Below the pieces are notes generated by a model. It was given only the letters and a program-made list of their open reading frames with translations. It was not told the origin of the DNA and searched no databases. The translations under genes and the position numbers were made by a program. Positions 39,342 through 39,546 of a stretch of DNA of 64,000 bases are shown here, in pieces (the stretch's first letter is position 1; each line of letters begins with the position of its first letter). Location: positions 152-64,151 of the forward strand of contig JAFQFR010000013.1 of NCBI GenBank assembly GCA_017398595.1, in the 5' to 3' direction. The DNA is from Clostridia bacterium. Lineage in GTDB: Bacteria > Bacillota > Clostridia > Oscillospirales > CAG-272.

Positions 39342-39366
39342 AGCACTTGGCAAAAGCCAAGTGCTT
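39342..39366. terminator. Terminator hairpin, left copy of a perfect 25-bp duplication
   Basis: AGCACTTGGC-AAAA-GCCAAGTGCTT. It keeps the upstream A-run (CAAAA) but has lost the T-run. Confidence 0.6.
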
Positions 39367-39369
39367 GAA

Positions 39370-39512
39370 GCTGTCGAAAAACCAAGGTTTTTCGACAGAA
39401 AGCAAAACCGTTCACTCGCGTCGTGCTCGACCGCACGCGGTTTTTAAGGAGTTTTAAAGCCGGCACATGTCCGTCTTTAAAACAAGATTTTATTAAAAAT
39501 ACTTTTTCGACA
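39370..39512. repeat. MITE-like interspersed element, copy 2
   Basis: Same left palindrome, right block and TIRs as 31879-32020. The central stem differs but stays complementary. Confidence 0.7.
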
Positions 39513-39517
39513 AGCTG

Positions 39518-39546
39518 AGCACTTGGCAAAAGCCAAGTGCTTTTTG
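39518..39546. terminator. Terminator hairpin, right copy of the 25-bp duplication
   Basis: AGCACTTGGCAAAAGCCAAGTGCTT followed by TTTT. Identical to 39342-39366. Confidence 0.65.

Follow-up and report, generated by a model that had tools for sequence, protein, structure and literature searches.

Why does the same terminator-like hairpin stand twice, letter for letter, between two convergent genes? We addressed this question in a window of 64,000 nucleotides from a Clostridia bacterium assembly. The hairpin sequence, AGCACTTGGCAAAAGCCAAGTGCTT, occurs at 39342-39366 and again at 39518-39542, and the two copies are identical at 25 of 25 positions, so a sequence-only reading that had claimed two perfect 25-bp copies was borne out. 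These are the only two occurrences in the window; no third match was found there when up to three mismatches were allowed, and no second copy arose in 100 shuffles. That reading also had the copies flanking a 143-bp core at 39370-39512. They do flank it, but the size was too small: both copies abut, with no gap, the tips of an element that fills the entire interval 39367-39517, or 151 bp.

The gene on the left (38313-39335, + strand) encodes a 340-aa protein that the source records name "PHP domain-containing protein", and PF02811 is present in close homologues; 6 nt separate its stop codon from the left hairpin copy. The gene on the right (39549-40229, - strand) encodes 226 aa, and its stop codon is likewise 6 nt away from the right hairpin copy. 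It was earlier labeled a putative SGNH gene, and no Pfam hit is on record for its product. The stop positions given earlier, 39335 (+) and 39549 (-), agree with the list of open reading frames, and the order of the PHP and 226-aa genes recurs on other contigs.

The left copy consists of a stem (AGCACTTGGC), an AAAA loop, a second stem arm (GCCAAGTGCT) and one additional T, and it folds as a hairpin. It is preceded by AAAA, probably the ancestral A run (39339-39342), and followed by GAAGCTG, which is the element tip and not a T tract. AAGCTG comes directly before the right copy and TTTGTATT directly after it, and this copy keeps the probable ancestral T run at 39541-39545. The claim that the left copy holds only the A run and the right copy only the T run can thus be read directly from the flanking sequence, and the hairpin nearest each gene does lack a T tract. 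In a + strand terminator scan, the left copy was not scored and the right copy was the sole terminator-like site of the two. The target reconstructed by removing the element, tcaaaAGCACTTGGCAAAAGCCAAGTGCTTtttg, folds at -21.7 kcal/mol and has the form of a bidirectional intrinsic terminator between convergent genes: an A run upstream, a 10-bp GC-rich stem with an AAAA loop, and a T run downstream.

We looked for an uninterrupted version of this site, and of a second element copy in the window, through the exact PHP, 226-aa and LysM/CAP proteins, and recovered no empty site in relatives for either. These look-ups led back only to the same contig, to short contigs broken within the element, or to L202, where the locus is rearranged. 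Every conspecific contig retrieved carries the insertion or breaks within it, and the regions downstream of the nearest PHP homologues (85% and 77% identity) are not syntenic. We therefore infer the single-hairpin ancestor from the pattern across the element family and have not seen it directly.

The element at 39367-39517 (+), copy 2 in the window, has the tips GAAGC.../...AAGCTG and the full ends GAAGCTGTCG...CGACAAGCTG, with its bounds set by the duplication. Near its left end is a palindrome (39371-39398), CTGTCGAAAAACC-AA-GGTTTTTCGACAG, formed by the left terminal repeat and an inverted copy of itself. A variable internal hairpin follows (39404-39445, AAAACCG...CGGTTTTT) that is terminator-like in both directions; the terminator scan flags its inner stem at 39422-39437 together with CGGTTTTT. 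The next hairpin (39451-39483, GTTTTAAAG...CTTTAAAAC) is subterminal and conserved, lying in a 61-nt core that is 93% identical between the window copies. The right terminal inverted repeat (39503-39517, TTTTTCGACAAGCTG) matches the right ends of IS1182-family elements. The list of open reading frames contains none of substantial length in the 151 bp. Neither window copy matched Rfam at gathering score, and a permissive scan gave sub-threshold, weak matches only to models that hold generic terminator hairpins.

Copy 1 (31876-32026, +), apparently an older insertion, is also 151 bp and is 81% identical to copy 2. Both copies start with the perfect palindrome of the same two arms around a loop, and in both a third half-site copy, TTTTTCGACA(A/C)GC(A)TG, closes the element. 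At the position of the internal hairpin copy 1 has GGGGCG...CGCCCC, so that the sequence differs and the pairing is kept. Its flanking hairpins have diverged from each other. The left one (31845-31874, AAAAAAATCCGCCTTCGGGCGGATTTTTTT) has both its A run and its T run intact; the right one (32027-32055, AAAAGATCCGCCCGAGGGCGGATCTTTTT) has the stem of the left hairpin with a loop nearer the reverse complement of the left loop, and it was scored as "invert".

Two minor features of the element interior and right end were recorded. In the conserved core (39446-39506 and its equivalents in loci L020 and L036), AAGGAG is followed 15 nt later by ATG. The short reading frame that begins there in the window copies, MSVFKTRFY*, was dropped as a candidate gene because its stop codon is not kept in L020 or L036. 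In those two loci, the frame from the core ATG crosses the right end without a stop, and in the window copies it stops after nine codons. The stopless frame recalls the IS1272 transposase gene, which has no stop codon inside the element, and the core frame may be left over from the gene ends of the parent element. Separately, the right terminal repeat in subfamilies A to C, described below (e.g., L028 and L011), is often TTTTTTGACA, which includes a perfect outward-facing -35 hexamer, TTGACA; the window repeat at 39503-39517 has TCGACA in its place. Such an outward hexamer could form hybrid promoters with flanking DNA.

Scanning genome contigs with the left-end palindrome, using one genome per GTDB species, we found 60 loci, almost all of them in uncultured Oscillospiraceae/Clostridia MAGs, with approximately 5 to 20 loci per main MAG. 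Clustering of 300-nt neighborhoods gave four subfamilies with 19, 17, 9, and 6 members, which have only their ends in common; the interiors are unrelated and rich in hairpins. Family members are 150 to 314 bp long with CAG...CTG tips and terminal inverted repeats of approximately 16 nt. The consensus left tip is cAGccTGTCGAAAAAC, and the right tip is its inverted counterpart ending in CTG. The window element belongs to subfamily D, as do L020, L026, L036, and L057, and the window copies cluster with four copies from the MAG of a roe-deer caecum. In this MAG the full-length form has a right-end palindrome as well, GCTTGTCGAAAA-TAYT-TTTTCGACAAGC. Copies of subfamily C are approximately 96% identical to one another, and this similarity therefore suggests that the subfamily has been active recently. 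With their small size, many dispersed copies, terminal inverted repeats, and target-derived flanking direct repeats, and with no transposase reading frame, these elements have the characteristics of MITEs.

Searches of other sequence collections returned little. The subfamily D core had no match in JGI metagenomes, an 18-mer of the conserved core had none in viral contigs, and blastn of the element against plasmids gave only chance-level matches in staphylococcal mob genes. The bare 15-nt tip, searched against viral contigs, gave mostly chance matches, together with non-autonomous relatives (L092, L136/L188, and L173).

We then scored hairpin duplication across the family as a local alignment score of at least 30 between the 45 nt to the left of an element and the region to its right. 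A duplicated hairpin was present at 35 of 49 assessable copies, compared to 4 of 500 random positions in the same loci. The duplications are 15 to 41 nt long (median 29), differ in sequence at each site, and occur in every subfamily. In 28 of the 35 copies, the gap between the duplication and the element tip is 0 to 2 nt. In 14 exact cases, the duplicated segment coincides with a perfect stem-loop to within approximately 1 nt, and the A-run and T-run extensions fall mostly outside it. Analogies with CRISPR repeat duplication and with a dif/Xer-type site were considered and rejected, as the flanking sequence differs at every site.

For gene context, we chose reading frames by GC3, a method checked on the window's own genes. 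By these frames, 20 of the 35 insertions are between convergent genes, 10 are downstream of one gene in a tandem pair, and 2 are in weakly supported divergent contexts; stop codons are typically 1 to 40 nt from the hairpin. Both kinds of run, A and T, are present at 14 of the reconstructed sites, a T run alone at 9, an A run alone at 6, and neither at 6. Given these runs, the targets look like intrinsic terminators, often bidirectional ones. A bias in element orientation relative to transcription, which had seemed possible in subfamily C, failed on the counts: 6 to 4 in tandem contexts and 9 to 6 for T-run-only versus A-run-only sites.

The outcome of insertion is not uniform: approximately 14 of the 49 copies show no clear duplication, and in a few the left and right hairpins are unrelated. 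Unrelated pairs were observed for the MITEs in L025, L048, and L062 and the full-length elements in L216 and L211, and they fit recombination between copies, or two-step or one-ended events. Several other pairs have the same stem and, in the right copy, a loop nearer the reverse complement: window copy 1 (TTCG versus CGAG), L033 (AATCAAAT versus ATTTGATT), and, in part, L009 and L023. This pattern suggests that the loop was inverted inside a perfect palindrome once the element was in place, as could happen through template switching, or that insertion itself had a variant outcome.

Three further observations concern the family at large. Solo palindromes of approximately 26 to 42 bp, in which a short loop separates a terminal repeat from its inverted repeat and nothing else is present, stand at L019 4409-4436, L017 3474-3501, L037 6321-6346, and near 9620 in L173; they are possible "micro-MITEs" or might function independently as hairpins. 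In L046, two different MITEs of the superfamily adjoin at one terminator. The first (2328-2526) is bracketed by a duplicated hairpin, TCCACTGTA...TACAGTGGA, and the second (2563-2725), which has simple single terminal repeats, directly follows the hairpin T run with no third hairpin copy. Finally, contigs assembled from other samples end inside the element in L002, L003, L068, L069, L200, L201, and L203, and also in L029 and L053, often within the left palindrome. Because short-read contigs stop there, the repeat evidently fragments assemblies of the species.

The element ends led to a known group of insertion sequences. One of them, ISCbo5, belongs to the IS1182 family, has cag...ctg ends, and occurs in Clostridium botulinum group III, with abundant copies in C. 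novyi as well (Skarin et al. 2011, PMC3098183). In Table S3 of that study, the direct repeats at 16 of 17 chromosomal copies are hairpin-forming palindromes of 15 to 44 nt, and the copies are found only at gene ends (Skarin et al. 2011, PMC3098183). We examined the copy on plasmid p3 (NC_015418.1, 35706-37318). Its 454-aa reading frame encodes a transposase that matches the NF033551 equivalog at 472 bits against a cutoff of 270, with the domains DUF772 (PF05598) and DDE_Tnp_1_6 (PF13751). Its left end is palindromic, CAGGCTGTTGATAAAC-ATAA-TTTGTCAACAG, and a 30-nt hairpin repeat flanks it on both sides. Its right end, GGAGGCTTTTTGAACAATCTG, resembles that of subfamily B, GCGAGGCTTTTTTGACAAGCTG. 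The ISCbo5 tips match the MITE ends at 13 of 16 positions on the left and at approximately 17 of 20 on the right.

Closer relatives came from viral (IMG/VR) contigs, which we searched with a profile built from Oscillospiraceae transposase fragments and ISCbo5; the search gave 40 loci. A full-length element of 1525 bp in L219 has the ends CAGCCTGTCGAAAAAG...CTTCGACAAGCTG, and its left tip matches at 15 of 16 positions. The transposases of L219 and L216 match NF033551 at 399 and 408 bits. Identical flanking hairpins of 22 to 40 nt were present at six of the eight full-length elements examined (40 nt in L219), and the left-end palindrome architecture is found in ISCbo5 and in the full-length L224, L211, and L214 as well. 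In Oscillospiraceae, IS1182-type relics end in ...TTCTTTGACA(A/G)ACTG directly against terminator hairpins. As judged from these flanking repeats, duplication of the whole hairpin is the normal behavior of the autonomous relatives. The MITEs combine ends homologous to those of NF033551-encoding elements with long direct repeats of variable length that lie on hairpins, and from the ends and hairpin behavior of these relatives the window element is therefore assigned to the IS1182-family MITEs. Together, the family pattern and the full-length relatives also support the earlier proposal that a single A-run/hairpin/T-run terminator was probably split in two at the PHP locus.

An autonomous partner with the exact terminal repeat was found neither in the window nor in the 60 loci, which we screened for multi-copy long reading frames and distant end pairs. 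The expected ends of such a partner are CAGCYTGTCGAAAAA...TTTTTCGACARGCTG around an NF033551 transposase gene. The only transposase trace among the MITE loci is a C-terminal relic in L065, and a route to IS1182 through aph(3')-IIIa plasmids led to IS257 and IS3 as neighbors and to no IS1182. As a side observation, C-terminal-only DDE_Tnp_1_6 proteins of approximately 110 to 210 aa, many of them 197 aa, are very common in Oscillospiraceae-like contigs. These are homologues of the L065 fragment (6618-7103, - strand), which had 675 matches; among the 120 listed (P0121-P0240), none is full length. The relic contexts we inspected (L193 and L194-L198) are fixed loci with the element right end and a terminator hairpin immediately downstream. 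The C-terminal-only proteins could be 5'-truncated relics or a retained truncated product.

From these comparisons, the interval 39367-39517 is very probably a non-autonomous IS1182-family MITE of the ISBma2/ISCbo5 type that inserted into one bidirectional terminator common to the convergent PHP and 226-aa genes, with duplication of the hairpin. Transposases of the ISBma2/ISCbo5 group would choose their target by shape and not by sequence, and an IS1182-family transposase acting in trans presumably moved the window copy. The element ends meet the two feet of the target stem-loop, whose entire palindrome stands on both sides; gap repair after the joining would have copied it. The duplication would be as long as the hairpin (25 bp here, 15 to 41 bp elsewhere) because the whole stem-loop is copied. 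On this account the left copy keeps the A run, the right copy keeps the T run, and the element ends up in a harmless position between gene ends with a complete hairpin restored on each side.

A route for the joining step is on record as a drawing: Wan et al. 2017 (PMC5678879) depicted, as a hypothesis, how the whole stem-loop would be duplicated if the ends joined a cruciform at its 5' feet. The attack by the transposase, we infer, falls on the stem base of an extruded cruciform or hairpin, which would correspond to pathway b of Wan et al. 2017. A cruciform would bring the feet close together, so that a short spatial stagger would become a hairpin-length stagger along the DNA. Our literature search found no biochemical study of the cruciform-attack step for any IS1182-family member. 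More speculatively, the left-end palindrome conserved from ISCbo5 to the MITEs might be a transposase-binding structure or a barrier to incoming transcription.

With elements of the ISCbo5/ISBma2 type, the window element shares the CAG...CTG tips and a left-end palindrome built of the terminal repeat. The right tips are similar (...CTTTTTGAACAATCTG in ISCbo5 versus the ...TTTTTCGACAAGCTG given above), and both ISCbo5 and the window MITE family enter hairpins at gene ends and duplicate the whole hairpin (15 to 44 nt and 15 to 41 nt, respectively). They differ in that ISCbo5 is 1.6 kb long with its own 454-aa transposase, whereas the window element is 151 bp with no reading frame. Unlike ISCbo5, the window element belongs to GC-richer Oscillospiraceae-like genomes and has three terminal-repeat copies, and its family has at least four subfamilies with unrelated interiors. 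The repeat of L219 and L216 is nearly identical to that of the MITEs (CAGCCTGTCGAAAAAG versus the consensus cAGccTGTCGAAAAAC, with the right end ...CTTCGACAAGCTG). Unlike the window element, these two are autonomous, 1.5 to 1.6 kb long, and encode NF033551 transposases; they are known from IMG/VR contigs and are not named in the papers we searched.

The staphylococcal IS1182-family elements IS1272 and TnSha1 share with the window element the choice of hairpins and terminators by structure, with no primary-sequence consensus (PMC4923244, PMC5678879). IS1272 picks hairpins and terminators in this way and deletes them (Furi et al. 2016, PMC4923244; Wan et al. 2017, PMC5678879). It deletes or replaces the target hairpin and makes no duplication, whereas the window element duplicates it; replacement of a stem-loop after the manner of IS1272 was accordingly rejected for the window element, since the target hairpin is present in two intact copies and duplication is usual across the family. 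TnSha1 and IS1272L are variants that have three terminal repeats, as in the window element. The IS110-family elements ISPpu9 and ISPpu10 also insert into palindromes, namely extragenic REP/BIME sequences. IS1397 is another insertion sequence that targets REP/BIME palindromes. In contrast to the window element, these elements target particular repeated sequences, use other transposase families, and make a short duplication or none, so that the whole hairpin is not copied. Classical MITEs such as Correia, RUP, ERIC, and Chunjie are likewise small, multicopy, and intergenic, with terminal inverted repeats, stable folds, and no reading frame, but their duplications are short and of fixed length, often TA or 2 to 9 bp (PMC10969869). 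A 2024 review of such elements makes no mention of hairpin-length duplications or of IS1182-derived MITEs (PMC10969869).

The sequence-only reading had also proposed that transcripts of the two convergent genes each cross the element, in opposite orientations, and end at the hairpin distal to their own gene. Such transcripts would share approximately 175 nt of perfect 3' UTR complementarity. This proposal adds to the MITE explanation and does not replace it, and we consider it possible but on balance rather unlikely. In its favor, the + strand scan picks out only the right copy as terminator-like, and GAAGCTGT comes next after the left copy; read on the - strand, CAGCTTGTCG comes after the right copy and TTTTGACTTATT after the left. 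Against it, the hairpin inside the element (39404-39445), which A and T runs flank and which is partly flagged in the scan, could end transcripts before the distal copy in either direction. The proximal copy keeps two T residues, moreover, and strong hairpins with two U can still partly terminate, and the distal tail on the - strand has only four consecutive T, which is below the scan's T-tract criterion. In copy 1, the proximal hairpin kept its full T run; loss of the T tract is therefore not general and depends on the position of the cut.

A broader version of this idea concerns the whole family. Since the A and T tracts mostly stay single when the hairpin is copied, every insertion into a convergent-gene terminator would leave two "half terminators" approximately 150 to 300 nt apart. 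Both mRNAs would then cross the element and overlap in complementary 3' UTRs, a possible substrate for RNase III, and the MITE family would be a repeated generator of antisense coupling. This version, which draws on the 20 of 35 insertions found at convergent pairs, seems to us doubtful, more so than read-through at the PHP locus alone. If it were true, the conserved internal hairpins could tune the extent of read-through.

Other explanations would do without an insertion of this kind. One holds that the flanking hairpins are part of the element and not target DNA, for example as a structured small-RNA gene in a long helix or with its own terminators. The whole region does fold very stably (z-scores of -8.3 and -9.8), the flanks of copy 1 can pair with each other, and the middle hairpin differs in sequence between the copies with its pairing kept. 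However, the flanks are different at every insertion site while the element between them is conserved, Rfam finds no family at threshold, and the terminal repeats are of transposon type and homologous to IS1182-family ends, so that we regard this explanation as very improbable. Still less probable is a palindromic element of the REP/REPIN or IS200/IS605 type moved by a Y1 HUH transposase, or a terminator-targeting retroelement, for instance a group II intron of class C. The hairpins that lie at both ends or close to them, and the position beside terminators, would suit either, but Y1 HUH and group II systems have no target duplication and no terminal inverted repeats, in contrast to the CAG...CTG repeats of approximately 16 nt and the long duplications here; the ends align to elements that encode an NF033551 DDE transposase, and 151 bp is far too short for a group II intron. 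That the two hairpins are ancestral, independent terminators between which an element landed is a reading we give almost no credence, even though convergent genes could each own a terminator and both hairpins of copy 1 are complete with A and T runs, since independent hairpins would not be identical at 25 of 25 positions with an A run on the left only and a T run on the right only, and since identical, site-specific hairpins bracket 35 of 49 copies and also full-length IS1182-family elements.

Under the MITE explanation, the local pattern of two identical terminators around a repeat is accounted for by a mechanism on record for the IS1182 family. Duplication of a whole hairpin is already known for relatives in that family, if not widely noted, and the window offers a clean example rather than a new mechanism. 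What is new is a diversified MITE family with hairpin duplication in gut Oscillospiraceae/Clostridia, together with a fairly large natural data set. The approximately 35 MITE and 6 full-length insertions, with hairpin copies that run from foot to foot, are natural evidence for a branch that existed only as a model in Wan et al. 2017. The set supports target choice directed by shape in a DDE transposase, a strategy that spares genes and leaves a restored hairpin on either side of the element. The insertions also matter in practice: the elements break short-read assemblies, several contigs ending inside them; terminator predictors will miscount the duplicated terminators; and the elements may lengthen the 3' UTRs of flanking genes.

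The window contains a few other repeats and structured sequences. Two pairs of segments, 26865-27083 with 30440-30658 and 27952-28143 with 31530-31721, are 74 to 77% identical and approximately 3575 bp apart; this common spacing indicates probable tandem paralogous genes. The downstream paralogue has a reading frame of approximately 500 to 540 aa that ends at 31838 and has a faint match to SBP_bac_8. The only Rfam match at threshold in the window is a cobalamin riboswitch aptamer (RF00174) at 17421-17633 (+), with 46.1 bits against a gathering score of 31.5. Lastly, a 44-nt promoter-like motif (TTGACA ... TAAAAT) occurs in four copies, at 6746-6789, 12485-12528, 18720-18763, and 19801-19844, which are 64 to 73% identical to the reference copy and may represent a shared promoter or operator architecture.
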